The notes below the pieces were generated by a model. It did no database searches, was not told where the DNA came from, and saw nothing but the letters and a program-made list of their open reading frames with translations. Below, in pieces: positions 34,215-64,000 of a stretch of DNA of 64,000 nt (its first letter is position 1; each line of letters begins with the position of its first letter). The position numbers were made by a program, and so were the translations under genes. The stretch lies in assembly GCA_963827865.1 (NCBI GenBank), contig CAWHCO010000005.1, forward strand, positions 43,068 through 107,067. Reading direction: 5' to 3'. The DNA is from an uncultured bacterium. Lineage in GTDB: Bacteria; Actinomycetota; Acidimicrobiia; Spongiisociales; UBA4744.

Positions 34215-35159
34215 GTGAGCGGAGTTGGTCTTGTCCTCGGGGGTGGAGGCGTCACCGGCGCGTCCTTCCATCTCGCAGCGCTACTCGCGCTGGAAATGGC
34301 AACCGGCTGGGATCCCACCACGGCCGACGTCATCGTCGGCACATCCGCGGGTTCGTTTGCAGCCGCGGTGGTTCGCTCGGGCAGCCTCTCTTTGGACAGC
34401 ATCGTCCGCCAAGGAGAACGGGAGGAGGACGTTGAACGGCGCATCCGCGCGTGGGTCTACAAGAAGAAGGCCCTCAACGGAGTCGGTCGCTGGATACGGC
34501 ACGGGATAATCCCCAGTCTCCGGCACCCCGGCTTGACGTCGCTGCTCGGTGCTCCTGGACGCTTCGATCCATCGGGAATCGGAGACTGGGTTGCCTCCCA
34601 GGCACCGTCCATCGCAGACAGCTGGCCGGATCGGCCGACAGTCGTAGTCGCCTACGGTCTCGAGGACCGGCGCAGAGTGGCCTTCGGCACGACCGACGCC
34701 CCCGATGTGACGCTGCGTGATGCCGTCTCGGCCTCCTCCGCGGTGCCGGTACTCTTCGATCCACACACCATCAAGGGCAAGAGGTACGTCGATGGAGGTG
34801 TCGCTTCGGGAACCAGCGCCGATCTCGTTCTCGGCAACCCCGAGCCGCTCGACCTGCTCTTGATCCTTGCACCCATGGCAGCGGAAGCACAGAGGAGCGG
34901 TGCCCTCTTCTACGAAGCCGTGTTCGACCGTGTCGGACGCTCTGCGCTCCACGATGAACTCGAGGCGGTGGCCGAGGTGTGGCCAGACACCGACACGCTC
35001 GTGCTTCGTCCAACCCCAGCCGTACTTGCCGCCATGCGGCCCAATCCGATGGATCCGGCGCGCGCTGTGCCGACATTCGTGCGCACGCTGGCGTCGCTTC
35101 GCTCCCGACTCGCCAGGGCCGAGGTGTGGCAGGTTCTCGAGCGTCACCTCGTTGCCTGA
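34215..35159 (+). CDS. Patatin-like phospholipase
   Basis: 314 aa. Oxyanion GGGGVTG, nucleophile elbow GTSAGS, and the catalytic Asp in YVDGGV. Confidence 0.85.
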   Translation: MSGVGLVLGGGGVTGASFHLAALLALEMATGWDPTTADVIVGTSAGSFAAAVVRSGSLSLDSIVRQGEREEDVERRIRAWVYKKKALNGVGRWIRHGIIPSLRHPGLTSLLGAPGRFDPSGIGDWVASQAPSIADSWPDRPTVVVAYGLEDRRRVAFGTTDAPDVTLRDAVSASSAVPVLFDPHTIKGKRYVDGGVASGTSADLVLGNPEPLDLLLILAPMAAEAQRSGALFYEAVFDRVGRSALHDELEAVAEVWPDTDTLVLRPTPAVLAAMRPNPMDPARAVPTFVRTLASLRSRLARAEVWQVLERHLVA

Positions 35160-36139
35160 GGAATCTCCTCCAGCCACGCTGCTTTTTGCCTCTCTCCGGC
35201 AAATGAAGCCTCGATAGATGACCGGGCGATCGCGGCGAGATTCCCCTCTGTCAGTCCTAGTGCTGTCGCCGCCGCAACGTAGTTGTCCGCGATGTACCCC
35301 CCGAAGTAGACGGGGTCATCGGAGTTGATGGTGACGACCGCACCGGCATCGAACAGGCGTTTCAGGTTGTGTCGCGACATCTCGTGGACCACCTGAAGCT
35401 TGAGGTTCGAGAGAGGGCACATCGTGAGTGGGATCCGTTCCTTGACGACCCGTTCGAGGAGCGACGGGTCCTCTTCGATCCTCACTCCATGGTCGATCCG
35501 TTCTGCGTGGAGGAGATCCAGTGCCTCCCAGATGTACTCGGGTGGTCCTTCCTCCCCTGCGTGCGCAACGACGTGCAGCCCTTCGTCGCGTGCGCGGGCA
35601 AACACATCGGCGAACAGTGACGGAGGTCGGCCCATCTCCGATGAGTCGAGTCCGACGCCAATGATCTTCATGCGGTGACGGAGACCATCTTCGAGGGTCC
35701 GCATCGCCGCCTCCGGGCTGAGATGACGAAGGAACGACAGGATCAGCGCGGCGGAGACCCCGAGATCCGATGCCTCCTCCACGGCCCTGTGCAGCCCCGA
35801 GATCACGACATCGAAGGGTATGCCTCGCTCTGTGTGCGTCTGAGGATCGAAGAAGATCTCGGCCCTGCGTACTCCGTCCGCGGCTGCACGTTTCAGATAC
35901 CCCCACGCGAGGTCATAGAAGTCCTGCTCGGTTTGAAGGACGGCGGCACCTTCGTAGTAGATGTCGAGGAACGACTGGAGATCGGAGAATTCGTACGCCG
36001 CCTTGATCTCCTCGACTGTCGAGAAACGCAACGCAACGTCGTTTCGTTTCGCAAGCGTCAGCATGAGATCTGGCTCGAGCGCTCCCTCGACGTGAATGTG
36101 CAGTTCCGCTTTGGGAAGGCTTCGAACGTAGGTTTCCAC
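35144..36139 (-). CDS. add: Adenosine/adenine deaminase
   Basis: 331 aa. LPKAELHIHVEGAL, HAGE, SINSDDP-like TINSDDPVYFG. Confidence 0.85.
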   Translation of the reverse strand: METYVRSLPKAELHIHVEGALEPDLMLTLAKRNDVALRFSTVEEIKAAYEFSDLQSFLDIYYEGAAVLQTEQDFYDLAWGYLKRAAADGVRRAEIFFDPQTHTERGIPFDVVISGLHRAVEEASDLGVSAALILSFLRHLSPEAAMRTLEDGLRHRMKIIGVGLDSSEMGRPPSLFADVFARARDEGLHVVAHAGEEGPPEYIWEALDLLHAERIDHGVRIEEDPSLLERVVKERIPLTMCPLSNLKLQVVHEMSRHNLKRLFDAGAVVTINSDDPVYFGGYIADNYVAAATALGLTEGNLAAIARSSIEASFAGERQKAAWLEEIPQATR

Positions 36140-36205
36140 TGCTGACTTCCCTCGACGGCTATGAATCCCGAATCCTACCCGCCGGTCGGTAGCATCGTCG
36201 CCAAG

Positions 36206-37633
36206 ATGACCACGCTACTCGTCACCCATGCGACTGTCCTCGTCACGATGGATGAGCACCGGAGAGAGATTTCCGACGGCGGATTCTTCGCGAGGGACGG
36301 ATGGATCGAGCAGGTCGCTCCCACCACGGAACTCCCCTCCTCTGCTGATGTCGTGCTCGATCTGACCGATCATGTCGTCATACCCGGCCTGGTCAACACG
36401 CACCATCACCTGTACCAGACCCTCACCCGAGCGTACGCCCAAGACGCGGAGCTCTTCGAGTGGCTGACGACGCTATATCCGGTGTGGGCGAAGCTCACAC
36501 CCCACGACATTCATGTCTCTGCACGACTCGGGCTGACGGAACTCGCACTGAGTGGATGCACCACCTCATCGGACCACCTATACCTGTTTCCGAATGGCGC
36601 CCGTCTCGACGACGAGATCGACGCGGCCCGCGAGATCGGCATCCGATTCCACGCTGCGAGAGGATCGATGAGCCTCGGACAGAGCGACGGCGGCCTCCCC
36701 CCGGATTCGGTTGTCGAGGACGAACAAGCGATCCTCGACGACACACGCAGGGTCATCGAGTCGTTCCACGATCCCGCGCCGGGCTCGATGCTCCGGGTGG
36801 TCGTTGCTCCGTGCTCACCGTTCTCGGTAACACCGGACCTGATGCGAGAGTCTGCGGTGCTCGCCCGCCACTACGGGGTCACGCTGCACACTCACATCGC
36901 GGAGACGATCGATGAAGAAGCGTTCTGTGTCGATCGATTCGGCATGCCCCCGTTGGCATATGCGGAGAGCGTCGGTTGGGTGGGGCCCGACGTCTGGTTC
37001 GCCCACGCGGTACACATGTCCGAGTCGGAGATCGCCAAGATGGCCGATACCGCCACCGGCGTCGCTCACTGTCCGGCCTCGAACATGCGTCTCGGATCAG
37101 GAATCGCCCCGGTCGCCGAGTATCTGGAAGCCGGCGTCCCCACTGCGCTCGGTGTCGACGGCTCCGCCTCCAACGACGGGAACGACCTCCTAGGAGAGGC
37201 GCGACTGGCCATGCTCCTCGCGCGTGTTCGAAGGCGGGGCATGATGCCGATTCGATTGGCACTGGAGGTGGCCACAGTCGGCGGCGCACAGGTCCTCGGG
37301 CGCGACGACATCGGTGCTCTGGCGCCGGGAAAGACCGCCGATTTCGCGGCCTTCGACCTGAACCATATCGAGTACACGGGCGCGCAGCACGACCCAGTCG
37401 CCGCCCTCCTGCTCTGTGCCCCAACCCGGGCCGCCTACACGTTCGTGCACGGATCGCCCGTCGTCTCGGAGGGCCGACCCGTCAACGTCGAGTTAGAAAC
37501 GCTCGTGGAAGAGCACAACCGCGCCGCCCGCGCGACTGCTCGCCTAGCCGACAGCGAACCGCGAACAGCAGACAGCAAGAAAGGGACGTCAGTGCGATTG
37601 GCTGTTCGCTGTCAGCTGTCGACTGTCAGCTGA
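36206..37633 (+). CDS. Amidohydrolase of the 8-oxoguanine deaminase / guanine deaminase-like (TRZ/ATZ) group
   Basis: MTTLLVTHATVLVTMDEHRREISDGGFF..., PGLVNTHHHLYQT, HTHIAET, FAHAVH, GVDGSASND. The last 25 codons or so run through a palindromic repeat element. Confidence 0.75.
   Translation: MTTLLVTHATVLVTMDEHRREISDGGFFARDGWIEQVAPTTELPSSADVVLDLTDHVVIPGLVNTHHHLYQTLTRAYAQDAELFEWLTTLYPVWAKLTPHDIHVSARLGLTELALSGCTTSSDHLYLFPNGARLDDEIDAAREIGIRFHAARGSMSLGQSDGGLPPDSVVEDEQAILDDTRRVIESFHDPAPGSMLRVVVAPCSPFSVTPDLMRESAVLARHYGVTLHTHIAETIDEEAFCVDRFGMPPLAYAESVGWVGPDVWFAHAVHMSESEIAKMADTATGVAHCPASNMRLGSGIAPVAEYLEAGVPTALGVDGSASNDGNDLLGEARLAMLLARVRRRGMMPIRLALEVATVGGAQVLGRDDIGALAPGKTADFAAFDLNHIEYTGAQHDPVAALLLCAPTRAAYTFVHGSPVVSEGRPVNVELETLVEEHNRAARATARLADSEPRTADSKKGTSVRLAVRCQLSTVS
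37547..37630. repeat. Inverted arrays of 7-nt repeats (GCTGTCN words) at a convergent gene junction
   Basis: The left arm is GCCGACA GCGAACC GCGAACA GCAGACA GC. A 24-nt spacer follows. The right arm is GCTGTTC GCTGTCA GCTGTCG ACTGTCA GC. The arms are imperfect reverse complements. Confidence 0.6.
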
Positions 37634-39836
37634 TCTCTGCGATGTCCTCCGGGTGAATAGGCAATCGCGTCACCGGCTTGCCCGTAGCGACACGAACCGC
37701 CGCCGCCACCGCGGCTGCCGAAGAGATCGACGGCAGCTCCGAGAATCCCTTGGCGCCGAACGGCCCCCATGAACTCGGCTGTTCCAGGACGACGGCCTCG
37801 ACCGGAGGCATATCCTCGATCGTCGGCAGGAGGTAGTCGGTGAACGTCGGATTCTTGATGACGCCGTTGTCGAGTATGACCTCTTCCATCAGTGCCATGC
37901 CGAATCCTTGCGCGATTCCGCCCTCGATCTGTCCGATCACCTGCATAGGGTTGAGAGCCTTCCCGACGTCTTGGGCCGTGTCGATTCTGACGACGCGGAC
38001 CAGCCCGAGGACCGGATCCACATCGACGACCGCCCGGTGAGCAGCGACGCAGAAGTCGACGTGGACGTCGCCTTGTCCGTTCTCGTCGGGCTCCTCGGTG
38101 GGAGCGTGCCGATAGCGGATCTCGCCAACGACCGGCCCCCCGGCGCACAGCTCAGGCCAAGTCGCGACGAGTCGACCATTTCGCCACACTCCCTCGTCAT
38201 CCATTTCGTCACCGCCCACTCGTTCGAGAGCGGCGGCACGAGCCCGCCGAGCGGCGTGCTCGACTGCGCCGCCGGTCATCTGGGTCTGTCTGGAGGCCGA
38301 CGAAGAGCCCGCTGAACCGATCTGTGAGGTGTCATCCCATGCGATCTCGACTCGTTCCAAGCCCAGGACGCTGCGCGCGATCTGGGCGAGGATCGTGATC
38401 ATGCCTTGTCCGACTTCGGCCGCGGCGGTGTGGACACGAGCACCGTCCGGAGTCAGTTCGACTCTCGCGTCTGCGTAGTCATCGAACGCCTCGGAAAACG
38501 CCAGGTTCTTGACTCCGACCGCATAGCCGATGCCTCGAACGACCGCGGAGGCCGGAGTCGTGAGACCCGTGCCGCCTGGCCGTCGATCGGTGTCCTCATC
38601 GGGCAATGGGATCGACATCACCGACCGGATGACCTCCTCGGTCGGAAGCGGATCGACGATTCGCTGACCTGTCGTCGCCAGCACGTCACCGGGACCGATG
38701 GCATTCTTCAATCGGAGTTCCAGTGGATCCATGTCTAGTGCAGCGGCGAGCCTGTCCATCTGCGCTTCATACGCGAAACAGACCTGATTGGCACCGAACC
38801 CTCGCATCGCCCCCGTCGGCGGGTTGTTGGTACGCACCGCATACCCCTCAACGAACACGTTGGGGCAGCGGTACGGTCCCGCAGCGAAGTACACGGCGTT
38901 TGCGATCACGGCCTCGGACGTGTTCGCATACGCACCACCATCCAACACGAGCTTCGCGTCGACCCTGACGAGCGTCCCGTCAGGATCTGCCTCGTGCCGG
39001 TACCACATGTGGGCGCTATGGCGCTTCACATGCCCGACGAAGCTCTCGTCTCGCCCATACACCATCTTGACGGGACGCCCCGTTCGCAACGCGAGCATGC
39101 ACAGGTGGGTGTGCAGGCTGAGGTCCTCTCTGGACCCGAACGCCCCGCCAAGACCCGTCGGGTGAACACGAAGCTGGTCGGACTCGAGTCCGAGACACCG
39201 AACGAGCTGCTCGTGGTCGACATGAATCCACTGCGACGGAGGGTAGAGGTCTACCCCACCAGACCCGTCCGGGACGGCAAGTCCTGCCTCGGTGCCCAGT
39301 GGCGCCTGGTCGATATTCGGCGTCTCGTAGTAGCCCTCGACGACGACTGCGCCGTGCGCTTCGTGGTCGCCCCGTCTCACCCGCATCTCTCTGAAGATCT
39401 CTCCAAGCTCAACCGCCTCTTCGAGATTCGTTGCGGGAGTCAGCGGCTCCACCTCGACACCGATCGCAGCGGCGGCCGCACGCGCCTGGTCTCGCGTCTC
39501 GGCAGCAACCAACGCGACGGCCTCGCCCCAGAAACGGATCTCTCCTTCGGCGAGAACCGGCTGGTCCTGCACGATCTGGCCCTGGTACTTGAAACCGGGC
39601 ACGTCACCCTGTGTGAGGACGGCGACGACCCCTTCCATGTCGAGCGCGGGTGTGACATCGATCGAGATGATCCGGGCACGGGGCGCGAACACCCTATGTG
39701 TGGCTCCCCACAGCATGGTCTTGGCACTGAGGTCGCCCACATACGCGAATGCCCCCGAGACCTTCGCGGCGCCGTCCGGTCGTCGAATGGACTCGCCCAC
39801 ACCTCCGCTCACGCGCCTCGATGTTCTCGCCGTCAC
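37626..39836 (-). CDS. Xanthine dehydrogenase family molybdopterin-binding subunit (set 1)
   Basis: 736 aa. a/b-hammerhead N-terminus (IRRPDGAAKVSGAFAYVGD), GLGGAFGSRED, GFGANQVCFAYE, IEGGIAQGFG. GTGA overlap with the FeS subunit. Confidence 0.9.
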   Translation of the reverse strand: MTARTSRRVSGGVGESIRRPDGAAKVSGAFAYVGDLSAKTMLWGATHRVFAPRARIISIDVTPALDMEGVVAVLTQGDVPGFKYQGQIVQDQPVLAEGEIRFWGEAVALVAAETRDQARAAAAAIGVEVEPLTPATNLEEAVELGEIFREMRVRRGDHEAHGAVVVEGYYETPNIDQAPLGTEAGLAVPDGSGGVDLYPPSQWIHVDHEQLVRCLGLESDQLRVHPTGLGGAFGSREDLSLHTHLCMLALRTGRPVKMVYGRDESFVGHVKRHSAHMWYRHEADPDGTLVRVDAKLVLDGGAYANTSEAVIANAVYFAAGPYRCPNVFVEGYAVRTNNPPTGAMRGFGANQVCFAYEAQMDRLAAALDMDPLELRLKNAIGPGDVLATTGQRIVDPLPTEEVIRSVMSIPLPDEDTDRRPGGTGLTTPASAVVRGIGYAVGVKNLAFSEAFDDYADARVELTPDGARVHTAAAEVGQGMITILAQIARSVLGLERVEIAWDDTSQIGSAGSSSASRQTQMTGGAVEHAARRARAAALERVGGDEMDDEGVWRNGRLVATWPELCAGGPVVGEIRYRHAPTEEPDENGQGDVHVDFCVAAHRAVVDVDPVLGLVRVVRIDTAQDVGKALNPMQVIGQIEGGIAQGFGMALMEEVILDNGVIKNPTFTDYLLPTIEDMPPVEAVVLEQPSSWGPFGAKGFSELPSISSAAAVAAAVRVATGKPVTRLPIHPEDIAEIS

Positions 39837-40276
39837 TGCACGCTCCTGACTGCCCTGATGATGGACCCATACCCGGTACAGCGACAGATGTTGCCTGCAA
39901 GGGACTCGCGGATCTCACCGTCGGTCGGGTGCGGGTTCTGATCGAGGAGGTGTGTGGCGGCGACGACGATTCCCGGCGTGCAGTAGCCGCACTGGACACC
40001 TCCCTCATCGAGGAGTGCCCCTTGCACCGGGGAGAGGCCCGCCTCGGGAGTCAACCCCTCCACTGTGACGATGTCGGCGCCCTCGGCATCGAGCCCCAAG
40101 ACGAGGCATGAGCACACAGGCTGCCCGTCCATCAAGATGGTGCACGAACCGCACTCGCCCTGCTCGCAGGCGTCTTTGCTCCCGGTTACACCGAGGTTCT
40201 CGCGCAGGACTCTCAGTAGGCTTTGCGCACCATCGACGGCCACTTCCGTCTCGATCCCGTTGAGTTGGAACCTCAT
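39833..40276 (-). CDS. (2Fe-2S)-binding subunit of xanthine dehydrogenase family enzyme (set 1)
   Basis: 147 aa. CEQGECGSCTILMDG, CGYCTPG, NICRCTGY. Confidence 0.9.
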   Translation of the reverse strand: MRFQLNGIETEVAVDGAQSLLRVLRENLGVTGSKDACEQGECGSCTILMDGQPVCSCLVLGLDAEGADIVTVEGLTPEAGLSPVQGALLDEGGVQCGYCTPGIVVAATHLLDQNPHPTDGEIRESLAGNICRCTGYGSIIRAVRSVQ

Positions 40277-41064
40277 AGCAAACGCTCCAGTGTGCGTCGT
40301 GCGATGACGCCTACTCCGTGCCGCCGGTATCGTGCAGTGGCCCGGTGGTCTGTGATCGGAGATGCCTCTTCCGACACGAGCCGTTGGAACTCATTGAGCG
40401 CCGCTTCGCTCGGCGATCGTTCTTCGGAGATCATCTCCTCGGCCCGCCGAGCCCTCGTCACCGTTGGCGCGACCGAACCGAGTGCGACGCGTGTCCTCCC
40501 GTCGGAGAATCGAGCAATGCACACCGATGCGATCGCAATCACCATCGCCGATCGGGTACCGATCTTCGAGAATCCCTGCCGCTCCGGCATGTGTAGGGGA
40601 AGCTTGACCCCAACGACAAGCTCGTCCGGCATCAGTGCTGTGCGTTTGACGCCAATGAAGAACTCGTCCCAGCGCAACTCCCTGGATCCGTTCACCGACC
40701 GGGTCACGATGCTCGCGTCGACAGCTGCGAGAAACGGGAGGGCGTCACCCGCGGGACTCGCCGTCCCGATGTTCCCTCCGATCGTTCCCACATTTCGGAT
40801 CTGGGGTGAACCGACCGTGCGAGCCGCCTCGGAGAGTCCAGGCCACGGGGAGCGTTCGAGGCGAGCATGCGTGACGCCGGCACCGATCCATTCCTCACTG
40901 ATTTCGGCGAGTTCATCGATCCGGCGCAGCGCCACGATCCTGGAGGGGTGACGGTGCCCGAAGTTGACCTCGACCATCAGGTCCGTCCCACCCGCGAGGC
41001 ACGTCGCGTCGCCATCGAGCGCCTGCACCGCGTCGTCGATCGTTGTCGGGAACTCGATGTGCAC
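40273..41064 (-). CDS. FAD-binding subunit (CoxM/XdhB-like) of xanthine dehydrogenase family enzyme (set 1)
   Basis: LAGGTDLMVEVNFG, GNIGTASPAGD. The track ORF reaches 41226 with an Arg/Pro-rich leader. The first in-frame start near the conserved N-terminus is the GTG at 41064 (VHIEFPTTIDDAVQAL). The start is uncertain. Confidence 0.75.
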   Translation of the reverse strand: MHIEFPTTIDDAVQALDGDATCLAGGTDLMVEVNFGHRHPSRIVALRRIDELAEISEEWIGAGVTHARLERSPWPGLSEAARTVGSPQIRNVGTIGGNIGTASPAGDALPFLAAVDASIVTRSVNGSRELRWDEFFIGVKRTALMPDELVVGVKLPLHMPERQGFSKIGTRSAMVIAIASVCIARFSDGRTRVALGSVAPTVTRARRAEEMISEERSPSEAALNEFQRLVSEEASPITDHRATARYRRHGVGVIARRTLERLL

Positions 41065-41809: not shown

Positions 41810-41813
41810 GTCC

Positions 41814-41933
41814 CCGGTACCTGGTACGCCACCTAGCCGCGGAGTCGGGCCGCGGGGCGAGCCGTACCCGCAACTACTCCGGACGCGCTCTACCGCCAGG
41901 CGCGATACGAGGTACAAGGTACGAGGTACGACC
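41814..41933. repeat. GTAC-heptad inverted-repeat element, copy A
   Basis: The left arm is CCGGTACCTGGTACGCC. The right arm is ATACGAG GTACAAG GTACGAG GTACGAC C. An inner CCGCGG...CCGCGG hairpin is present. It shares the exact 17-mer TACGAGGTACAAGGTAC (41906-41922) with 53545-53561. Confidence 0.65.
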
Positions 41934-41949: not shown

Positions 41950-42945
41950 CTACATCGTAAGGACGGCTGCCCCCGCGACCCGGCCTTCGCGGAGGTCCAA
42001 GAGCGCTCGGTTCGCCTCCTCCAGCCGGTACTGCTGGACGACCGTCCTGATGGGGATCTCGGCGGCGAGCTGCAGGAATTCGCGCGCATCTTCCTTCGTG
42101 AAGTTGGCGACGCTGCGTATCTGTCGCTCCAGCCACAGGTGCCGGTAGTCGAATGCGGGCATCTCGTCGAGATGGATCGCGTTGATGGCGACCGCTCCTC
42201 CCCTATCGACCGCCTTCAGCGCCTGGACGACGACCGAGCCCACCGGTGCGAATGTCACGGCTGCGTCCAGTGACATCGGCGGCGGTTCGTCATACCCGCC
42301 TACCCAGACAGCGCCCATCTCGGTGGCCCTAGCCCGCTCTCCCTCGGACCTGGTGGCGACGTACACACTGCATCCCCAGTGCAGGGCAACCTGCAGGGAG
42401 AGCAGCGCCGACGCTCCGAATCCGTAGAGCCCGAGGCGACCTCCCGGTTGAATGCCTGACACCTTCAGTGCTCGGTAGCCGATCACTCCACCACACAGCA
42501 GCGGAGCGACGTCGACATCAGACACGCCTTCAGGAAGATGAAACGCGTACCCCGCATCGGCTGTCGCCTTCTCGGCATATCCGCCATCGCGGTCCCATCC
42601 GGTGAACACCGCCGACGTGCACAGGTTCTCGCGACCCGACCGGCAGAAGTTGCACCTGCCGCAACTCCCGCCGATCCAGCCAACACCCGCTCGCTCCCCC
42701 ACGCTCCACCCCTCCACGGCGTCACCGACTGCTGCGACCGCACCGACGATCTGATGTCCCGGTATCACCGGAACCCGGTGCGGCTCGATGTCGCCCTCAA
42801 CCTCCTGGAGGTCGGTACGACACACACCGCACGCCGTCACATCGAGCAACAGTTCTCCGGCCATTGGAACAGGATCGTCCGTATGTTCGAGGCGCAGCGG
42901 CTGTCGGTCGACTGGAGCCAGTTCGTACAGCAGCTGCGCACGCAT
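41950..42945 (-). CDS. Zinc-dependent alcohol dehydrogenase family oxidoreductase
   Basis: The start is taken at the ATG at 42945, 1 nt after the upstream stop; the track gives 43002. CGVCRTDL, GHQIVG, structural-zinc CGRCNFCRSGRENLC, and the GLYGFGASA Rossmann motif. Confidence 0.85.
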   Translation of the reverse strand: MRAQLLYELAPVDRQPLRLEHTDDPVPMAGELLLDVTACGVCRTDLQEVEGDIEPHRVPVIPGHQIVGAVAAVGDAVEGWSVGERAGVGWIGGSCGRCNFCRSGRENLCTSAVFTGWDRDGGYAEKATADAGYAFHLPEGVSDVDVAPLLCGGVIGYRALKVSGIQPGGRLGLYGFGASALLSLQVALHWGCSVYVATRSEGERARATEMGAVWVGGYDEPPPMSLDAAVTFAPVGSVVVQALKAVDRGGAVAINAIHLDEMPAFDYRHLWLERQIRSVANFTKEDAREFLQLAAEIPIRTVVQQYRLEEANRALLDLREGRVAGAAVLTM

Positions 42946-47593: not shown

Positions 47594-47607
47594 CGTTGGC
47601 TCCTTGC

Positions 47608-47640
47608 AGTCTTCAGTCTTCAGTCATCAGTCTTCAGTCC
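47608..47640. repeat. Tandem heptamer array CAGTCTT x 4.7 in the gap between the two carbamoyltransferase genes
   Basis: CAGTCTT CAGTCTT CAGTCAT CAGTCTT CAGTCC. A partially complementary array, GAGAACT GAGAACC, lies at 47690-47703 after a GC-rich spacer. Confidence 0.7.
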
Positions 47641-47706
47641 GGAACGACGGAACCTCGGCCGCCGACGCGTCTACCGACGACCGAAAACCGAGAACTGAGA
47701 ACCGTT

Positions 47707-50830: not shown

Positions 50831-50847
50831 CCCCCGGAAGGAGCAAC

Positions 50848-51876: not shown

Positions 51877-51886
51877 GGAGACGACG

Positions 51887-53480: not shown

Positions 53481-53572
53481 GTACCTCGTATGTACCTCGT
53501 ACCGGTACGGCCCGCCCCGCGGTCTGGAAACGCGTTTGTTCGAGTACGAGGTACAAGGTACAAGGTACAAGG
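53481..53572. repeat. GTAC-heptad inverted-repeat element, copy B
   Basis: The left arm is GTACCTC GTAT GTACCTC GTACCG GTAC. The right arm is GTACGAG GTACAAG GTACAAG GTACAAG G. It lies between the convergent ABC ATPase and YgfK-like genes. Confidence 0.7.
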
Positions 53573-56600: not shown

Positions 56601-57025
56601 CCGGGGAAGCCGAGTCGCCGGTGGAGGGCATGGATGAGCACCCACGCTCGCAGATACTCCTCGAACGACTCGTGTACCTTCAACTCCTGGGACCACTCGA
56701 CGTTGTAGCCCTCGTCTTGGCAGTCGATACATGGTTTGGGCACGTCGAGCTCATCGAGCGTCTGGACGGTCTTCAGCTCGATGAACCGTGCACCGTGGAG
56801 CCACGCGACGACGATGTTCTGTGCCATCTGTGTGTGCGGTCCTGCCGCGACGCCGAATGGCGTGTCGAGCGCCTGACCGTAGACGTTGGTTCGGTAGCGG
56901 TCCGTCGGGTCGGGAACGAAGAAGGCGGAACGCGGGAACCCGAAGATCGTGTCCTCGGTCTCGAGTTCGGAGAACACCCATCTGCTGAGCGCGCGGGCGC
57001 TGATCGGGTGGAATCGATCGGACAT
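53603..57025 (-). CDS. YgfK-like multidomain oxidoreductase (DHOD/DPD-like barrel + GltD-like FAD/NAD(P) domain + 2x[4Fe-4S] ferredoxin)
   Basis: ATG at 57025 behind AGGAGTG; the track gives 57121. 1140 aa. N-terminus IFGFPRSAFF...GVAAGPHTQMAQNIVVAWLHGARFIELKTVQ. VAIIGAGPAGMSAA..., VAVIGAGDTAMDCART, CLDCDLYCSICVGVCP, CNECGNCVTFCP. Confidence 0.8.
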   Translation of the reverse strand: MSDRFHPISARALSRWVFSELETEDTIFGFPRSAFFVPDPTDRYRTNVYGQALDTPFGVAAGPHTQMAQNIVVAWLHGARFIELKTVQTLDELDVPKPCIDCQDEGYNVEWSQELKVHESFEEYLRAWVLIHALHRRLGFPGDDPGLIFNMSVGYDYAGIQQPNVQWYFERMDDASERLGEMVEIVAADYPEVRSIHIPRRLSDTITLSTMHGCPPDEIETISQYLMKQRHLHTSVKLNPTLLGPDGVRSILSDLGYRDVPVPDAAFGHDLQYADAVPMLRRLKAVGAGEGLTFGVKLTNTLEVENFRDVFTDETMYMSGRALHAITTNVANRINEDFAGDLLMSFAGGADAFNAPSLLASGMSTITVCSDLLRSGGYMRMLQYFETTDTALDRAGAENLDELIVRTALERPGELTGVFAVSLGIEQAAEEVASLNEGGVLPRNPATRRALVTAAARVNLRAYSAEARQAWDLKKGSFFRSRSKTVRPLDLFDCIAAPCEDECPVNQRVPEYMRAVRDGDWATAVAVTRQDNPIPTILGQVCDHLCEHTCIRTHYDEPLAIRDMKRFVMTLETEPAATVPKPATGIKVAIIGAGPAGMSAAEVLAGEGFEVTMFEQHPYPGGMVSGAIPEYRLPQIEIDKDVKVVNDLGVETRFGQTAGRDFTVSDLRKQGYRYVLVAAGAQIGKRLGLEGEEADGVMDALHFLRAAREGHPVPIGDRVAVIGAGDTAMDCARTSWRLGTDHVTVVYRRTIDQMPADREEVHLLLEEGIRVEELTSPVALHIEDEALAGLVCVRNEYRGDRDASGRKVPHTIEGSEFELPFDTMILAISQHALIDFFDEELPALTRGGYLDVDPATMETSIPGVFAAGDVAAPGPASIVKAAGDAKVVAATIIEREGGSVVPAERNLPVFSVADIQVRKAHREYRVPITHVPVGERKNFRMGTFPYTAEEAQNEASRCLDCDLYCSICVGVCPNMALMTYTMEPVSFDLPVVTIGGEGASVAPGESFSVEQGYQIAVLTDFCNECGNCVTFCPTAGEPYRDKPRLYLNRDDFLSEPDNAFMLHNGAMEGRFAGETHRIELNGSLTYENPLGTVHVDPDEFTVIDASGKDGAVLRLEAAATMYAIMQGLRGSMPYLPVAAS

Positions 57026-57038
57026 ACTCACACTCCTA

Positions 57039-58061: not shown

Positions 58062-58080
58062 AGAACCTCCTCCCGCAAAC

Positions 58081-60630
58081 CTACCCGCTGCGTGCCAGCG
58101 GGAGCGTGTTCCTCCAGGCGCCGTCTCGGTCGTGCATTGCTGCGGCGACCGCCGGCGCGGTCGGGACCAGCCCGATCTCGCCGACGCCCTTCACGCCGTA
58201 CGGGGCGTTCGGTTGGGGCACCTCGATGATGATGACGTCAACGTTCGGCATGTCCTTGGCACGCAGAATGCCGAGGCTGCGGAAGGTCATGTTGATAGGC
58301 CGTCCTGAGTCGTCGACGGGGAAGTCCTCGGAGAGGGCGTACCCGAGGCCCATGTGGACAGCACCTTCGATCTGTCCTTCGACGAGGGTCGGATTGACCG
58401 CCTTTCCCACGTCGTGCGCTGCGACGACCCGCTCGATCTCGCCCGTTTCGCGATCCATGATGACCACCTGCGCGGCGTATCCGAACGCGGAGTGAATGGT
58501 CGGATGCTCGACACCGGATTCGAGTGAGTTCGTCCAGTCAATGACGTACTGGCCGTGGTGGTCGACTCCCACCGTCCTACCTGCCGCGATCGCGTTCCGG
58601 CAGGCGTCTTGGATCGCTCCCGCGCCGAGCAGCGTGCCCCGCGAACCGGTCGTCTGTCCGTCGCCTAGCTCCCTCGTGGTGTCGACGATCACCCGGACGT
58701 TCGCCGTGTCGACGCCGAGTTCCTCGGCCGCGACCTGCTGGGCGACCGTGTGGATGCCTTGGCCCATCTCGGTCCAGCAGTGGCGCACTTCCACGGTGCC
58801 GTCCTCTTCGAATCGAACAACAGCCCTCGACACCTCCTTGTACCCATTGCCGAGGCCGGTGTTCTTCAGCGCGAGGCCGAGCCCCACCGCCTTGCCTTCC
58901 GATCGGGCGTTGTGGTAGACGTCTTTGACGGCATCGAGGCACTCCGAAGCCCCTCGGCAGCCATCGTCCATGATCTGACCGGGGCCCCATTCGACGCCGG
59001 GGGTGATGACGTTGCGCGCTCTGATCTCCCAGCCGGAGATGCCGACGACTTCCGCCAGCCGATCGAGGGCCCCTTCCATGGCGAACTGTGCCTGGTTGGC
59101 ACCGAACCCTCGAAACGCTCCGCACACCGGGTTGTTGGTTCGCACCGCGATCGACTCGACGTCGACGTTTGGGACGACGTACGGACCGGTGGCGTGCCCT
59201 GCAGCGCGTTCGAGCACCTTCATACCGACGGAGGCATATGGGCCGGAGTCGCCGACGAGACGCGCCTTCACCGCGGTCAGCCGACCCTCCTCGTCGCATC
59301 CCACCTCGTACTCCAAGCGGATGGGGTGGCGTTTGGCGTGCATCAGGAGCGATTGCTCCCTGGTGAGTGTGCACTTGACGGGCCTTTGGAGGAGCCAGGC
59401 GGCGAGCGCGGTCTGGCCCTGGTTAGACATGTCCTCCTTGCCTCCGAACGCCCCTCCGTTCGAGACGAGCTCCACCGTGACTGTGTCGCTCGATACGGCG
59501 AGCAGTGCGGCGATCTGATCGCGGTCGTCCCACACCCCTTGGCCGCCCGAGTAGACGTGGAGCTTGCCGCCCGGCATAGGCACGGCAAGGGTCGATTCAG
59601 GCTCCAGGAACGCGTGTTCGACCCGTTGGGTGGTGAACACCTCGTGGATCGTGTGTGCACTCGATTCGAGCACTGAGTCCACATGGCCGCGCTGGTAGGT
59701 AGAGCGCGACAAGACGTTGCCATCGAGTCCCCACACGGCATCCTCGTCCGATGCGAGCGCCTTCTCAGCGTTCGTGAACGGAGCAAGCGGGCGGTACTCG
59801 GCGGTGACCAGCTCGGCGGCACGGCGGGCCGTCTCCCGATCCTCGGCGACGACGACCGCAAGCACATCACCGAGATAGGACGTGCGGCCCCCTTCCGGGA
59901 TGAAGACGGGCCAGTCCTTGTCGATCAACCCGACGCGCAGCGTTCCCGGCAGATCCTTGGCTGTGAACACGCCGACGACACCATCGGCTTCTTCCGCGAT
60001 GCTGGTGTCGATGCGAAGGACGTCTGCACGAGCATGATCGGCGAGCCGGAGCGCTGCATGAAGCATCCCATCGACGCGCAGATCATCGATGAACCCCCTG
60101 CTCCCGAGAGCCAGTTCTCTCGCCTCGTACTTGGCGCCGGTCGAGCCGACCCCACCAGGCGGCGAGACTTCGATCGGGCCGTCGTGGGCGACTGCCTCGA
60201 TGGCTTCGAAGACCTTGAGGTAGCCGGTGCAACGGCAGAGGTTGGCCCCGAGGTGGCGTTGGAGGTCGCCGCGGGTGAGGTCCGCACCCTTCTTGTCGAT
60301 GAGGGCCTTCGATCGCATGATGATGCCCGGAGTGCAGAACCCGCACTGGGTAGCACCGTATGCAGCGAACGCGTCCGCGAAACGATCACGCTCCCAATCG
60401 GACAGCCCTTCGAGGGTGACGATGCTCGTTCCTTCGGCCTTGTCGACGTCCATCTGGCACGACACGCGAGCTTTGCCATCGACGAGGATCGTGCACGCAC
60501 CGCACTGACCCGAAGGCGAGCACCCGTCCTTGGGTGAGGTGACATCGAGTTCTTCGCGGAGTGCGGCCAGGAGATGCGGGTGGCCGTCCTGCACCTCGAC
60601 TGGAGTGCCGTTCAGCTCGAAGCGAGTCAT
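58081..60630 (-). CDS. Fused (2Fe-2S)-binding + molybdopterin-binding xanthine dehydrogenase family protein (XdhD-like architecture)
   Basis: About 850 aa. The N-terminal 150 aa are an FeS domain (CSPSGQCGACTILVDG, CGFCTPG, NLCRCTGY), fused directly to the hammerhead and Mo domains (NGGAFGGKED, GFGANQAQFAME). The start is either the ATG at 60630 or the GTG at 60639. Confidence 0.85.
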   Translation of the reverse strand: MTRFELNGTPVEVQDGHPHLLAALREELDVTSPKDGCSPSGQCGACTILVDGKARVSCQMDVDKAEGTSIVTLEGLSDWERDRFADAFAAYGATQCGFCTPGIIMRSKALIDKKGADLTRGDLQRHLGANLCRCTGYLKVFEAIEAVAHDGPIEVSPPGGVGSTGAKYEARELALGSRGFIDDLRVDGMLHAALRLADHARADVLRIDTSIAEEADGVVGVFTAKDLPGTLRVGLIDKDWPVFIPEGGRTSYLGDVLAVVVAEDRETARRAAELVTAEYRPLAPFTNAEKALASDEDAVWGLDGNVLSRSTYQRGHVDSVLESSAHTIHEVFTTQRVEHAFLEPESTLAVPMPGGKLHVYSGGQGVWDDRDQIAALLAVSSDTVTVELVSNGGAFGGKEDMSNQGQTALAAWLLQRPVKCTLTREQSLLMHAKRHPIRLEYEVGCDEEGRLTAVKARLVGDSGPYASVGMKVLERAAGHATGPYVVPNVDVESIAVRTNNPVCGAFRGFGANQAQFAMEGALDRLAEVVGISGWEIRARNVITPGVEWGPGQIMDDGCRGASECLDAVKDVYHNARSEGKAVGLGLALKNTGLGNGYKEVSRAVVRFEEDGTVEVRHCWTEMGQGIHTVAQQVAAEELGVDTANVRVIVDTTRELGDGQTTGSRGTLLGAGAIQDACRNAIAAGRTVGVDHHGQYVIDWTNSLESGVEHPTIHSAFGYAAQVVIMDRETGEIERVVAAHDVGKAVNPTLVEGQIEGAVHMGLGYALSEDFPVDDSGRPINMTFRSLGILRAKDMPNVDVIIIEVPQPNAPYGVKGVGEIGLVPTAPAVAAAMHDRDGAWRNTLPLARSG

Positions 60631-60722
60631 CGGCCACACCTTACGCGCCCGAGGGCGGTTGTGCCCCCGCTACCCGGCTCTCGGAGAGACGACACCTCGG
60701 GAGCGCTAGCATCTGATCTCGG

Positions 60723-61538
60723 ATGATCACCGAGTACGTGCGCTCCGGCTCCGTCGAAGAAGCCTTCGGGCTGCTGACATCGCTCGGATCCAGGGCGCGC
60801 CTGATGGGCGGAGGAACCGACCTCTCCCTCCACCCCCCTGCAGAGGTCGACACGCTCATCGACCTCTCAGGAGCGTCGCTCGACGGCATCACTCGTGACG
60901 ATGGAACCATCTCGATCGGCGCCACGGTCACGTTGACCGAGATGCTCGAGTATGAACCGCTCGGCAGCGTCTGGTCGGGTGTTGTGCACACAATGCTCCG
61001 ACGGGTTGCGTCTCCCCTCCACCGCAACGCTGCTTCGATCGGTGGCCATCTGGCGAGGGGACGCCTGTCGGACGTGGTGCCCGTGATGCTCGCGATCGAC
61101 GCGTCGGTGAAGTTCTATGACGGTGCAGCGAAACAGATGCCACTCGGGGAGTTCTATTCGACGAGACGCAACAGGCAGCCGTTGGTCGTGACCGGTGTGG
61201 AGATCCCCGTCGATGGTGGCAGGGCCGCATTCCGGAAGTTCGCCCGTACCACGTATGACCTGGCGATCCTCAATGTGGCGTGTGGAGTCCGCTTCGAAGG
61301 CGCCGTTGTTTCGTCCGCGAGGATCGTTGTCGGCGAACGACCGAGCCTCGCTGTAGATCTCGGTGACGCGTCGCAGGTCCTGGTCGGCCATCCCTTCGAT
61401 GAGGATTCGATAGCGGAGGCCGCCCGTGTCGCGAGGGACACGGTCGACGTTCGCTCCGATCCCAGGGGAAGCGCCGAGTATCGCCGGCACCTCACCGAGG
61501 TGCTCGTTCGTCGTTGTCTCTCGGAGGTTGGCCCATGA
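60723..61538 (+). CDS. FAD-binding subunit of molybdenum hydroxylase (YgfM/CoxM-like)
   Basis: 271 aa. MGGGTDLSLH, ASIGGHLARG, and the C-terminal CO dehydrogenase flavoprotein-like region (DPRGSAEYRRHL). Confidence 0.8.
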   Translation: MITEYVRSGSVEEAFGLLTSLGSRARLMGGGTDLSLHPPAEVDTLIDLSGASLDGITRDDGTISIGATVTLTEMLEYEPLGSVWSGVVHTMLRRVASPLHRNAASIGGHLARGRLSDVVPVMLAIDASVKFYDGAAKQMPLGEFYSTRRNRQPLVVTGVEIPVDGGRAAFRKFARTTYDLAILNVACGVRFEGAVVSSARIVVGERPSLAVDLGDASQVLVGHPFDEDSIAEAARVARDTVDVRSDPRGSAEYRRHLTEVLVRRCLSEVGP

Positions 61539-62002
61539 ACCTCACGGTGAATGGTGTCGGGTTCGACGTGGAGGTCACACCTTCCGAGAGTCTGCTGGAC
61601 CTGCTGCGACGGCTCGGATTCAAGGGTGTGAAGAACGGCTGCGACAACGGAGATTGCGGGGCGTGCGCCGTGCTGATCGACGGCAGGGCTGTCACGTCGT
61701 GCGACTACCCGGCGCCGGCCGCGGCCAACACCAACATCCTGACCGTGGAAGGTCTCGAAGCCGAGGGTGAGCTGCACCCGATCCAAGCTGCGTTCCTCGA
61801 CACAGGCGGGGTCCAGTGCGGCTTCTGCACCCCGGGGATGCTGATCAGCGCCTACGAGCTGCTGAGTCGGGTCTCTGAGCCTTCAGATGACGAAATACGC
61901 GAAGCGCTGCGCGGAAATCTGTGCCGCTGCACGGGCTACGTGAAACCGGTGGAGGCCGTCAGGATCGCTGCTGCGAGGATGCGGGAGGCGGACGGTGGCT
62001 GA
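61535..62002 (+). CDS. (2Fe-2S)-binding subunit of xanthine dehydrogenase family enzyme (set 3)
   Basis: The ATG at 61535 forms an ATGA overlap with the FAD subunit stop. MNLTVNGVGFDVEV, CDNGDCGACAVLIDG, CGFCTPG, NLCRCTGY. Confidence 0.9.
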   Translation: MNLTVNGVGFDVEVTPSESLLDLLRRLGFKGVKNGCDNGDCGACAVLIDGRAVTSCDYPAPAAANTNILTVEGLEAEGELHPIQAAFLDTGGVQCGFCTPGMLISAYELLSRVSEPSDDEIREALRGNLCRCTGYVKPVEAVRIAAARMREADGG

Positions 62003-64000
62003 TCGGTTCGTCGTCGTCGGTCAGAGCGAGCGTCGTGTGGATGGGCGTGCCCTCGTGACGGGCAAACCGGTGTTTGCCGGCGACCTCGACCTTCCCGGCA
62101 TGCTGCATCTCGCGATGCTCGGTTCGCCGCACCCGCATGCACGTATCACCTCGATCTCGACGGAGCGGGCGGAGGCACTCGAAGGGGTGGAGCTCGTGCT
62201 GACGCATTTGAATACACCGTCGGTCCGCTACACGACCGCTGGGCAAGGGCATCCGGAGCCGTCTCCATACGATTCGCGGATGTTCGACCCGAAGGTCCGC
62301 TTCGTCGGGGATCGTGTAGCCGTTGTCGCCGCCACGTCGAAGGAGATTGCAGAACGTGCGCTGGAGCTCATCGCGGTCGAGTACGAACCGCTGACGCCCG
62401 TCCTGTCGATCGACGACGCGCTCGCCGACGGGGCGCCGGTCATCCACGACGAGGCGGACGCGTCGGGGATCTGGGACGCCGAACACAACATCGCAGGAGT
62501 GGTCGAGGCCGACGTCGGCGATGTCGATACGGCGATCGAGTCGGCGTTTGCGAGTGTCGAGTTCACGGGAGAGACCCAGTACGCGCAACACGTCCCACTC
62601 GAGCCGCACGTATCGCTGGCCTACCTCGACGACAACGGACGGCTGGTGCTCTACACGAGCACCCAGGTTCCCTTCCACGTGCGTCGGATCATCGCACGCG
62701 TCCTCGACATCCCGGCCGGACAGATCAGGGTCATCAAGCCTCGCATCGGAGGAGGCTTCGGCGTGAAACAGGAGATCCTCATCGAGGACCTCGTCGGACT
62801 CGTCACCTACCGGACCGGTCGGCCGTCCAAGTTCGAGTACACCCGAGCCGAGGAGTTCTTCCAGTCCCGCACCCGGCATCCGATGCGGGTGACGATCCGG
62901 CTGGGAGCCGACAAGGACGGACACCTGACCGCGGTGCACATGGACGCCCTCGAGAACACAGGTGCCTACGGGGCCCACAATCTGACCGTTGTATCCAACG
63001 CCGGCTCGAAGACACTGCCCATGTACAACAAAGCACCGAACGTGCGATTCACGGCCAAGGGCATCTACACCAACATGCCCGTCGGCGGCGCCTACCGGGG
63101 CTACGGTGCGACGCAAGGGATCTTTCCGCTCGAAGTGGGCATCGACATGCTCGCCGAGAAGCTCGGTATCGACGCACTCGAGCTTCGACGTCGCAACCAC
63201 ATCCGCTCCGGCGAGACCAGTCCCATCTTCGAGGAGCTCGGCGAGGGCCGGAAGGGCGTGCCGCAGACGATCGGCAGCTGCGGCCTCGAACGATGCATCG
63301 ACATCGGGGCCGAACGGATCGGCTGGTCGGCCAAGCGCAGCAAGCGCTTCCGTGAGGGGCCCTGGGTGCACGGTGTCGGCATGTCCATCCACATGCAGGG
63401 CTCGGGGATTCCCGCGATCGACATGGCCGCGGCGACCATCAAGATGAACGACGACGGTTCGTTCAACCTGCTGGTCGGCGCGACCGATCTCGGAACGGGC
63501 TCGGACACCGTTCTCGCACAAATGGCCGCCGAAGTCCTCGGCGTCACCCTCGACGACATCATCGTCCTTTCATCCGATACCGACGTGACCCCGTTCGATG
63601 TCGGCGCGTACGCGTCATCGACGACCTACGTGTCAGGCTCGGCGGTGGTGCGGGCCGCCACCGCCGTCAAGTCGCAAATCACCTCCGTCGCAGCGGCCAT
63701 GCTCAGGGTCGACGGTGATGAGCTCCAGGTGGGCGATGGCAGGGTCATAGCGAACGACGGTCGTACCGTCACGCTGGCGGACGTCGCACTACGGTCGCTG
63801 TACGGTGTCGACCAATTCCAGATCGGCTCGACCGCCTCGTTCGTCGGCGACGTCTCTCCCCCACCATTCCTCGCGTCGTTCGCCGAGATCGCAATCGACA
63901 CGGAGACCGGTGAACTGAGGATCGTCGACTACGCCGCTGCGGTGGACTGCGGAACGGCAATCAACCCGCGTCTTGCCGAGGGCCAGGCCGAGGGAGCTCT
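61995..64000 (+). CDS. Xanthine dehydrogenase family molybdopterin-binding subunit (set 3), partial, continues beyond right edge
   Basis: Absent from the track because it is open at the window end. GTG at 61995 behind GGGAGG reads VADRFVVVGQSERRVDGRALVTGKPVFAGD..., RIGGGFGVKQE, YRGYGATQG, GATDLGTGSDT, NPRLAEGQAEGA. Confidence 0.85.
   Translation, partial: MADRFVVVGQSERRVDGRALVTGKPVFAGDLDLPGMLHLAMLGSPHPHARITSISTERAEALEGVELVLTHLNTPSVRYTTAGQGHPEPSPYDSRMFDPKVRFVGDRVAVVAATSKEIAERALELIAVEYEPLTPVLSIDDALADGAPVIHDEADASGIWDAEHNIAGVVEADVGDVDTAIESAFASVEFTGETQYAQHVPLEPHVSLAYLDDNGRLVLYTSTQVPFHVRRIIARVLDIPAGQIRVIKPRIGGGFGVKQEILIEDLVGLVTYRTGRPSKFEYTRAEEFFQSRTRHPMRVTIRLGADKDGHLTAVHMDALENTGAYGAHNLTVVSNAGSKTLPMYNKAPNVRFTAKGIYTNMPVGGAYRGYGATQGIFPLEVGIDMLAEKLGIDALELRRRNHIRSGETSPIFEELGEGRKGVPQTIGSCGLERCIDIGAERIGWSAKRSKRFREGPWVHGVGMSIHMQGSGIPAIDMAAATIKMNDDGSFNLLVGATDLGTGSDTVLAQMAAEVLGVTLDDIIVLSSDTDVTPFDVGAYASSTTYVSGSAVVRAATAVKSQITSVAAAMLRVDGDELQVGDGRVIANDGRTVTLADVALRSLYGVDQFQIGSTASFVGDVSPPPFLASFAEIAIDTETGELRIVDYAAAVDCGTAINPRLAEGQAEGA

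Follow-up and report, generated by a model that had tools for sequence, protein, structure and literature searches.

A candidate variant of the reductive urate pathway in a purine-degradation gene cluster of an uncultured Acidimicrobiia bacterium

Gene content of the cluster and the known pathway

The window analysed here is a stretch of 64,000 nucleotides from an uncultured bacterium of the Acidimicrobiia (Actinomycetota; GenBank assembly GCA_963827865.1, contig CAWHCO010000005.1, positions 43,068 to 107,067). From position 35144 to about 300 bp beyond its end, the window carries a purine-degradation cluster (Table 1) that combines an importer, deaminases, three molybdenum (Mo) hydroxylases, YgfK, a short SsnA-type amidohydrolase, two carbamoyltransferases, a carbamate kinase and two pyridoxal phosphate (PLP) enzymes. 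We consider it probable, at about 0.6, that these genes serve to take up purines, channel them to urate and degrade the latter by the reductive 2,8-dioxopurine pathway, the lower half of which would be rewired. The original prediction, made from the letters of the sequence, had named the genes between 35144 and 64000 and estimated a cluster of about 29 kb; indeed, open reading frame (ORF) listing, codon-position GC and scans with NCBIfam and Pfam models confirmed every one of them at or near its listed place, and the size holds as well, since the genes upstream of about 34 kb are all housekeeping ones (aminoacyl-tRNA synthetases, RelA, SecDF, RuvAB, PdxS, citrate synthase). On the minus strand, the order is pseudo-ATCase (an aspartate carbamoyltransferase-like protein described below), YgeW-like transferase, carbamate kinase, ThrC-like enzyme, a PLP enzyme of 489 residues (PLP489) and a Zn-dependent alcohol dehydrogenase (Zn-ADH); a second minus-strand run comprises an FeS-Mo fusion hydroxylase, the 340-aa short SsnA and YgfK, with the FAD, FeS and Mo genes of a further hydroxylase (set 3) diverging from it on the plus strand. 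In an identical public contig (L084) the last Mo subunit is 767 aa long and is followed by a convergent nicotinate phosphoribosyltransferase gene and a two-component system. Exact matches are found in two NCBI metagenome-assembled genomes and several JGI metagenomes, and the nearest species genome is that of an uncultured Acidimicrobiia bacterium (L003, 93% identity).

The reductive 2,8-dioxopurine route has been elucidated in gut Firmicutes and E. coli alone and was reconstituted in two 2025 studies (Li et al. 2025, PMC12507026; Liu et al. 2025, bioRxiv 10.1101/2025.04.24.650524), so that the earlier remark that several steps are biochemically unassigned is outdated. The route leads from urate to 2,8-dioxopurine, its dihydro form, ureidomethylhydantoin, 2,3-diureidopropionate, diaminopropionate and then pyruvate. 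XdhD-YgfM (or the clostridial XdhAC) reduces urate and YgfK dearomatises 2,8-dioxopurine; HyuA generates 2,3-diureidopropionate, one ureido group of which is phosphorolysed by YgeW, with YqeA making ATP, and the other hydrolysed by YgeY; YgeX then converts diaminopropionate to pyruvate (PMC12507026; 10.1101/2025.04.24.650524). The order of ureido removal is disputed, a question raised in a 2025 commentary.

With the pathway of E. coli and Clostridium sporogenes the window shares YgfK, a hydrolase of the SsnA type, an XdhD-type Mo enzyme whose FAD subunit resembles YgfM, a YgeW-type transferase, carbamate kinase and an upstream xanthine dehydrogenase (XDH), and thus the same carbamoyl-phosphate logic of ATP formation. 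It differs in that YgeX, YgeY and HyuA are missing from the cluster and yqeB, yqeC and mocA are not nearby, a pseudo-ATCase occupies the YgeY slot, two PALP-fold enzymes unrelated to YgeX stand in the place of the latter, XdhD is split in three, SsnA is short (340 aa), a TIGR03311-type fusion is added and a BMP-type ATP-binding cassette (ABC) importer is found instead of the UacT/XanQ permeases. The view that the window holds an actinobacterial, here acidimicrobial, version of the ygfK/ssnA/xdhD purine pathway is supported by YgfK (908 bits), the SsnA-type protein and the XdhD-type set 3. Scored against curated models, the family labels fared unevenly: YgfK and carbamate kinase pass, but the SsnA, XdhD and YgeW models are matched below their cut-offs.

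Table 1. Genes of the purine-degradation cluster (window coordinates; scores in bits)
Feature	Position	Strand	Basis and remarks
Adenosine deaminase	35144..36139	-	NF006850, 513.8 (cut-off 419); feeds adenosine into the purine pool
8-Oxoguanine deaminase-type amidohydrolase	36161..37633	+	NF006055, 677 (cut-off 532); 8-oxoguanine to urate
XDH set 1 Mo subunit, PucD-like	37626..39836	-	TIGR03196, 733, below cut-off 783
XDH set 1 2Fe-2S subunit	39833..40276	-	pucE/XdhC-type matches, 172-180
XDH set 1 FAD subunit	40273..41064	-	Pfam FAD_binding_5 and CO_deh_flav_C; NCBIfam XdhB-type; 263 aa in public assemblies
Membrane protein, 221 aa	41127..41792	+	No Pfam or NCBIfam match; hydrophobic/transmembrane segments
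Zn-ADH family	41950..42945	-	TIGR02822, 380 (cut-off 283)
PLP489, divergent CysK/CBS-fold PLP enzyme, 489 aa	42947..44416	-	PALP, 40, weak; lysine motif FPTGAHK
ThrC-like PLP enzyme	44413..45642	-	NF006050, 287.5 (cut-off 303); TIGR00260, 172 (cut-off 167)
Carbamate kinase	45639..46592	-	NF009007, 386 (cut-off 266); arcC, 363 (cut-off 358); carbamoyl phosphate + ADP to ATP
Compact YgeW-type carbamoyltransferase	46619..47593	-	34% identity to YgeW, 30% to ArgI; OTCase-like in the first listing
Pseudo-ATCase (ATCase-like)	47707..48660	-	ATCase-fold carbamoyltransferase without aspartate-binding residues; TIGR00670, 255 (cut-off 237)
BMP/PnrA-type ABC importer	48774..53458	+	Pfam Bmp, 135; permease and ATPase matches
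Importer permease	48774-49901	+	
Importer permease	49898-50830	+	
Importer binding protein	50848-51876	+	
Importer ATPase	51887-53458	+	
YgfK (2,8-dioxopurine oxidoreductase, DOPOR)	53603..57025	-	TIGR03315, 908.5 (cut-off 835.3)
Short SsnA-type amidohydrolase, 340 aa	57039..58061	-	Top matches SsnA models, 248-263, below cut-offs
FeS-Mo fusion hydroxylase	58081..60639	-	TIGR03311 'selenium-dependent XDH' type, 835.8 (cut-off 830.45)
Set 3 FAD subunit, YgfM-like	60723..61538	+	Pfam FAD_binding_5 and CO_deh_flav_C; 25% identity to YgfM
Set 3 2Fe-2S subunit	61514..62002	+	XdhC/glyceraldehyde-DH gamma-type matches, 168-188
Set 3 Mo subunit, XdhD-type, 767 aa in full	61998..64000, runs past window end	+	42% identity to XdhD residues 164-855

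Two carbamoyltransferases and two PLP enzymes in the lower half

In aspartate carbamoyltransferase (ATCase), K84 and R229 hold the beta-carboxylate of aspartate. In the ATCase-like protein of the window, MAFFT and HMMER alignments agree that K84 is replaced by Y/Q and R229 by P, and HPLP has become HSLP, the form also seen in 11 of 11 orthologues; of the carbamoyl-phosphate motifs, both STRT and HPTQ are kept, and the top match in the PDB is 1ml4. Despite passing TIGR00670, the protein lacks the marks of a genuine PyrB (K84, R229, Q231, HPLP) and has those of the pseudo-ATCases of Barba et al. (2013, PMC4016543), namely STRT and HPTQ retained, H[ST]LP or HPLA where PyrB has HPLP, a lost RxQ, the P. 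abyssi ATCase as closest genuine relative and a non-pyrimidine context. In that work, subgroup 1 is represented by the ureidoglycine carbamoyltransferase Rxyl_2847, one pseudo-ATCase phosphorolyses allantoate (diureidoacetate) experimentally, and subgroup 2 includes a gene of Nocardioides sp. JS614 that lies beside a ygeW homologue, xdhABC and hyuA; no activity is reported there for the YgeW-linked subgroup. The window gene likewise has a YgeW-type gene, XDH genes and carbamate kinase as neighbours, but its residues at the RxQ position, P-V-V, fit none of the three published subgroup signatures, and the substrate proposed for it is a ureidopropionate rather than allantoate.

The second transferase, although below every family cut-off (TIGR03316, 174 against 500 bits; NF005538, 178 against 453), shares the motifs SYxKPLSVPQ and KSW with YgeW, of which it is a compact form lacking the insertions, and it has no ornithine-binding DxxxSMG motif. 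The carbamate kinase that follows shares 49% identity with E. coli YqeA. The block of transferases and PLP enzymes has no pyrC, pyrR, arg or hom/thrB gene in its vicinity, and in other loci adenine or 8-oxoguanine deaminases stand beside the transferase pair. In one of them, from an Anaerolineaceae bacterium (L169:5812-9094), an amidohydrolase, an adenine deaminase and a GntR/UTRA regulator precede the pseudo-ATCase/YgeW-like pair, the two genes of which are separated by those for two proteins of 695 and 651 aa.

In 16 of 25 informative loci the YgeW-like gene has a pseudo-ATCase next to it and in 8 a YgeY; one locus has both and none lacks both, an alternation with a Fisher p of 8e-6, uncorrected for phylogeny; a first test had given p = 0.11, with many loci cut just upstream of the YgeW-like gene, and was redone counting partial edge matches. 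Because the two genes alternate, the aspartate-binding residues are lost and a relative acts on allantoate, we infer that the two enzymes carry out the same step, YgeY by hydrolysis and the pseudo-ATCase by phosphorolysis. In particular, with two cationic residues gone, the site would suit a substrate carrying a beta-amino group where aspartate has a carboxylate, and this substrate might be 3-amino-2-ureidopropionate, which would favour the cleavage order of Liu et al. Wherever homologues of the pseudo-ATCase are named in public annotations, they are called 'aspartate carbamoyltransferase'; for these thousands of proteins, the name is probably a systematic misannotation.

The ThrC-like gene overlaps both the carbamate kinase gene and that of PLP489 by 4 nt at the start/stop codons, which points to translational coupling. 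The ThrC-like enzyme has the lysine motif SFKDR. PLP489 reaches 80 bits with the cysK model (cut-off 351) and no protein of solved structure is closely related to it (58 bits for CysK); its AlphaFold2 model (pLDDT 68, pTM 0.76) retrieves CBS and CysK as top Foldseek matches, which are generic (TM-score 0.4-0.6). A tblastn search of the window with YgeX yields a weak PALP-family match to the ThrC-like gene (28% identity over 128 residues) and nothing for PLP489, and no diaminopropionate ammonia-lyase model is among the NCBIfam matches listed.

PLP489 has more than 8000 database relatives, and homologues at 67-75% identity are present in at least 599 species genomes, mostly of Anaerolineae and also of Acidimicrobiia, Terriglobia, Desulfobacterales, Halanaerobiales, Polyangiaceae and Burkholderiaceae. 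Its neighbourhood was surveyed in 80 loci of ±10 kb, in which window and E. coli proteins were searched by tblastn and all ORFs were clustered. A ThrC-like gene is nearby in 61 loci, and directly adjoins PLP489 in 61 of 82; there are carbamate kinase and a YgeW-like gene in 33 each, the pseudo-ATCase in 32, the BMP transporter, embedded in the module, in 25, XDH-like genes in about 20, SsnA in 13 and YgfK in 10. Genes missing from the window appear as well, HyuA/D-hydantoinase in 22-23 loci (TIGR02033, 536 bits against 393) and YgeY in 9-11 (NF009555, 553 bits against 321), and a bona fide YgeX is found in none of the 80. Among the long loci with the ThrC-like/PLP489 pair, 31 of 34 have at least one pathway gene nearby (HyuA, YgeY, SsnA, YgfK, XDH, carbamoyltransferase or carbamate kinase), and across at least six phyla (Acidimicrobiia, Chloroflexota, Terriglobia, Desulfobacterales, Halanaerobiales, Polyangiaceae) the pair lies amid such genes in varied orders. 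The lower-module genes stay together across phyla, with identities of 67-78%, and a PLP489 paralogue (44-46% identity) lies beside the fusion hydroxylase or the short SsnA in three further lineages.

Since the pathway neighbours of the pair persist in varied orders, YgeX is absent and the genes are coupled to carbamate kinase, the pair can be placed in the position of YgeX, which, on this complementary distribution, it probably replaces. A possible division of labour between the two enzymes is racemisation and elimination, or replacement and dehydration. The thousands of PLP489 homologues that public databases label 'cysteine synthase' are probably misannotated in a systematic way too. The original prediction had given the places of ygeX, ygeY and hyuA to a second carbamoyltransferase, two PLP enzymes and a dehydrogenase. 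That idea survives for the ATCase-like protein in place of YgeY and for the PLP pair in place of YgeX, but there is no replacement as a block. Similarly, the supposed linkage of the six-gene operon to YgfK and SsnA across genomes is seen in the SsnA and YgfK counts above but does not extend to Zn-ADH, which is missing from 79 of 82 PLP489 loci and from all 37 loci surveyed around the short SsnA, and is present only in near-identical relatives. The 221-aa membrane ORF is confined to the close relatives L001-L003; both genes are lineage-specific extras.

Molybdenum hydroxylases, YgfK and SsnA in the upper route

The fusion had been taken for the XdhD-like enzyme of the cluster, an assignment that has to be moved to set 3. 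Indeed, the fusion is only 26% identical to E. coli XdhD (tblastn) and, as XDH set 1 does, keeps the equivalents of the classical Glu802 and Phe914, whereas the Mo subunit of set 3 has the Gln of XdhD (KQ(D/E)) at bovine position 802 and Tyr at 914. The alignment of Mo subunits further places in set 3 the GEG loop of XdhD with Glu606, a loop that neither XdhA nor set 1 nor the fusion has; all aligned Mo subunits have counterparts of Arg880 and Glu1261. The mapping used bovine positions 802, 880, 914 and 1261, and the DOPDH-diagnostic Phe1009/Ala1078, not reliably mappable, were left aside. In XdhD, Glu606 has been proposed to orient urate (Li et al. 2025, PMC12507026). Given these residues, the loop and an identity of 42% against 26%, set 3 is an XdhD-type enzyme split into three subunits and the fusion a member of another family. 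The best model of the set 3 Mo subunit, TIGR03313, gives 597 bits against a cut-off of 1102, the FeS domain being encoded separately and the window ending within the ORF. On its sequence, this subunit is a candidate reductase of urate to 2,8-dioxopurine. Just past the window, the nicotinate phosphoribosyltransferase gene (L084:9790-11331) converges on its end. Liu et al. (2025, bioRxiv 10.1101/2025.04.24.650524) place DOPDH closest to selenium-dependent nicotinate dehydrogenases; given this placement and the neighbouring gene, set 3 may have a nicotinate-related role.

YgfK is 33% identical to its E. coli counterpart over residues 1-1004, with Fer4_20 and Pyr_redox_2 domains (Pfam), so that the label holds; its start is most likely at 57025, giving 1140 aa. 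The gene for the short SsnA lies 13 nt upstream of ygfK, and its product is 32% identical to residues 56-438 of E. coli SsnA. SsnA models are its best matches, although below their cut-offs (TIGR03314, 248 against 455 bits; NF005540, 263 against 444), and profile positions 58-349 alone are covered in a profile of about 440 aa. The protein lacks about 55 residues at the N-terminus, the beta-strands there included, as well as four internal segments; the metal ligands are invariant with E. coli SsnA (HxH, further histidines and the GTDG aspartate). A frameshifted pseudogene was considered and rejected, as the in-frame stretch upstream has neither a start codon nor SsnA-like sequence and at least 80 metagenome loci encode such a short protein, at 59-79% identity. 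The protein, labelled short and SsnA-like in the original prediction, is thus a genuine lineage-specific form.

Around the short SsnA, 37 loci of at least 8 kb each were surveyed. The fusion is directly upstream in most of them, YgfK follows in 12, an 8-oxoguanine-deaminase-like gene is found in 18 (two genes after the short SsnA in relatives, at 45-64% identity to the window protein) and HyuA in 1 (L105), where it comes directly after YgfK. The conserved ligands, together with the YgfK and fusion neighbourhoods, support a working enzyme. YqeB is adjacent in 6 of the 37 loci and YqeC in 4, so that selenium-cofactor markers accompany the family elsewhere.

With E. coli proteins as tblastn queries, ygeY, hyuA, yqeB, yqeC and mocA have no match anywhere in the window, in line with the earlier view that ygeX, ygeY and hyuA are missing from the cluster. 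The sequence past 64000, to which that analysis had pointed for yqeB, yqeC, selD and hyuA, contains none of them within 7 kb, and selD too is missing from the window. The further suggestion of a different ring-opening route is not upheld: in 22 other loci, HyuA is the direct neighbour of this PLP pair, and it follows short SsnA-YgfK in L105, which argues that it is missing from the cluster rather than replaced by other chemistry.

Among the funnelling genes, XDH set 1 is predicted to be a classical PucCDE-like xanthine/hypoxanthine dehydrogenase, its Mo subunit having the equivalents of bovine Glu802, Phe914, Arg880 and Glu1261. The true start of the 8-oxoguanine deaminase is probably slightly downstream of 36161.

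The proposed route, its rivals and further observations

In the route that we favour, the BMP-type importer would bring purines in, and adenosine deaminase, 8-oxoguanine deaminase and the PucCDE-like XDH would funnel them to urate, which the split XdhD-type enzyme, the TIGR03311-type fusion or both would reduce to 2,8-dioxopurine. YgfK would dearomatise this product and the short SsnA open the six-membered ring. After opening of the hydantoin, 2,3-diureidopropionate would lose both ureido groups by phosphorolysis, one to the compact YgeW-type transferase and the other to the pseudo-ATCase, and carbamate kinase would turn up to two carbamoyl phosphates into up to 2 ATP per urate. The ThrC-like enzyme and PLP489 would then turn diaminopropionate, perhaps its D-isomer, into pyruvate and ammonia. 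While the upper route is known, the lower half, with two serial carbamoyltransferases and a PLP pair for YgeX, is apparently an undescribed variant, distinct and widespread. A bolder version, against which the odds lean somewhat, would make the PLP pair a new two-enzyme disposal of (ureido-)diaminopropionate that, with a pseudo-ATCase phosphorolysing the alpha-ureido group, completes a 'double substrate-level phosphorylation' route of about 2 ATP per urate, removing the 3-ureido group first (YgeW) and then the 2-ureido group, and dominant environmentally in sediment Chloroflexota and Actinomycetota.

These results suggest that environmental Actinomycetota and Chloroflexota run the urate pathway with a different, energetically richer ending. 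The alternation of pseudo-ATCase and YgeY provides a handle on which ureido group goes first and, if true, the swap would settle the order of cleavage. In parallel, the PLP pair, which is common in sediment bacteria, is a candidate for a new diaminopropionate-degrading activity.

The same logic of ureido phosphorolysis to carbamoyl phosphate, followed by substrate-level phosphorylation, is known from the arginine deiminase pathway with its catabolic ornithine carbamoyltransferase (OTCase) and carbamate kinase, from which the window differs in substrate, in transferase subfamilies and in having two transferases in series. In the sequence similarity network of Li et al. (PMC12507026), Chloroflexota SsnA clusters with an F420-type reductase, and three loci of our survey (L021, L073, L077) with the PLP pair, transferases and HyuA indeed carry SsnA and an F420-oxidoreductase-like gene, whereas the window uses YgfK. 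That network coloured neighbours by Pfam family (PF00291, PF00185), a level at which the PLP pair is not separated from YgeX nor the pseudo-ATCase from YgeW, and neither 2025 study (PMC12507026; 10.1101/2025.04.24.650524) mentions the two substitutions.

Several points weigh against the proposed route. HyuA is lacking in the window and the 7 kb beyond, which leaves one step uncovered; two non-classical Mo enzymes, set 3 and the fusion, both remain candidates for urate reduction; and the substrates of both transferases and both PLP enzymes are assigned from context and motifs. The ThrC-like enzyme passes the threonine synthase cut-off of TIGR00260, about 20% of the long loci have no pathway gene near PLP489, and the two PLP genes of Anaerolineae are separated by one for a membrane glycosyltransferase, which is unusual in a catabolic operon. 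In addition, the surveyed loci are not phylogenetically independent.

Many Anaerolineae copies of the lower module, with hydantoinase and BMP importer, have no XDH, SsnA or YgfK within 10 kb, and the known pseudo-ATCase acts on allantoate. Both facts would suit a block of carbamoyltransferases, carbamate kinase, PLP pair and importer that is self-standing, serves another ureido or hydantoin compound (of the allantoin, dihydropyrimidine or citrulline type) and is merely co-located with the purine genes. We regard this as unlikely, though it deserves to be taken seriously, since SsnA, YgfK, XdhD-like or YgeY genes directly surround the PLP pair or the transferases, in varied orders, in six phyla or more, the YgeY beside the YgeW-like gene passes its curated model, and adenine or 8-oxoguanine deaminases adjoin the transferase pair elsewhere.

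The short SsnA and the fusion could instead form a separate purine hydroxylase/deaminase pair that does not open dihydro-2,8-dioxopurine, leaving the reductive pathway incomplete or non-functional, as might be read from the near-constant adjacency of the two, the low share of YgfK and HyuA among the short-SsnA loci (12 and 1 of 37) and the scores below the SsnA cut-offs. That YgfK comes immediately after the short SsnA in the window and in L096, L136, L091 and L105, with HyuA added in the last, and that all metal ligands are shared with E. coli SsnA, makes such a pair distinctly improbable. Finally, a chance clustering of ordinary biosynthetic pyrB, argF, thrC and cysK would agree with the public names aspartate carbamoyltransferase and cysteine synthase and with the passing of TIGR00670 and TIGR00260, but is very hard to reconcile with the loss of K84 and R229 and the HSLP of the ATCase-like protein, the YgeW motifs and missing DxxxSMG of the OTCase-like one, the 80 bits of PLP489 against the cysK cut-off of 351, the coupling to a catabolic carbamate kinase, the recurrence of the unit across phyla and the lack of pyrC, pyrR, arg and hom/thrB nearby.

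Some further features of the loci may be recorded. The glycosyltransferase of Anaerolineae is a membrane-anchored family-2, PgfS/ArnC-like protein (L070:9028-9960 and 25 other loci). In 8-12 Anaerolineae loci (L070:13467-20285; L022, L029, L052, L064, L075 and others), a conserved block downstream of the hydantoinase encodes 534-aa, 210-aa, Mrp/Nuo antiporter-like and 448-aa proteins and SelB, and may correspond to a membrane complex that includes a selenoprotein and is associated with the module.

Scanned against Rfam at gathering thresholds, the whole window returned no riboswitch or other match, and a comparison of the divergent promoter regions found no common operator motif. In the gaps 41815-41931, 47607-47704 and 53481-53572, convergent or intra-operon and all inside the cluster, tandem heptamer repeats (TACGAGG, CAGTCTT/ACCGAGA, GTACAAG) form the inverted arms of long hairpins; GGTACRAGGTAC is seen 7 times against 0.19 expected, and the hairpin between the two carbamoyltransferase genes reaches -48.4 kcal/mol (z = -3.5). 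These hairpins may be terminators, stabilisers or REP-like elements. Outside the cluster, three successive minus-strand ORFs of 512, 232 and 550 aa (5857-9717) have gene-like codon bias and no Pfam match, and a single minus-strand ORF of 704 aa (15501-17615) encodes a QueA-Tgt fusion, with Queuosine_synth at residues 4-329 and TGT at 343-694.

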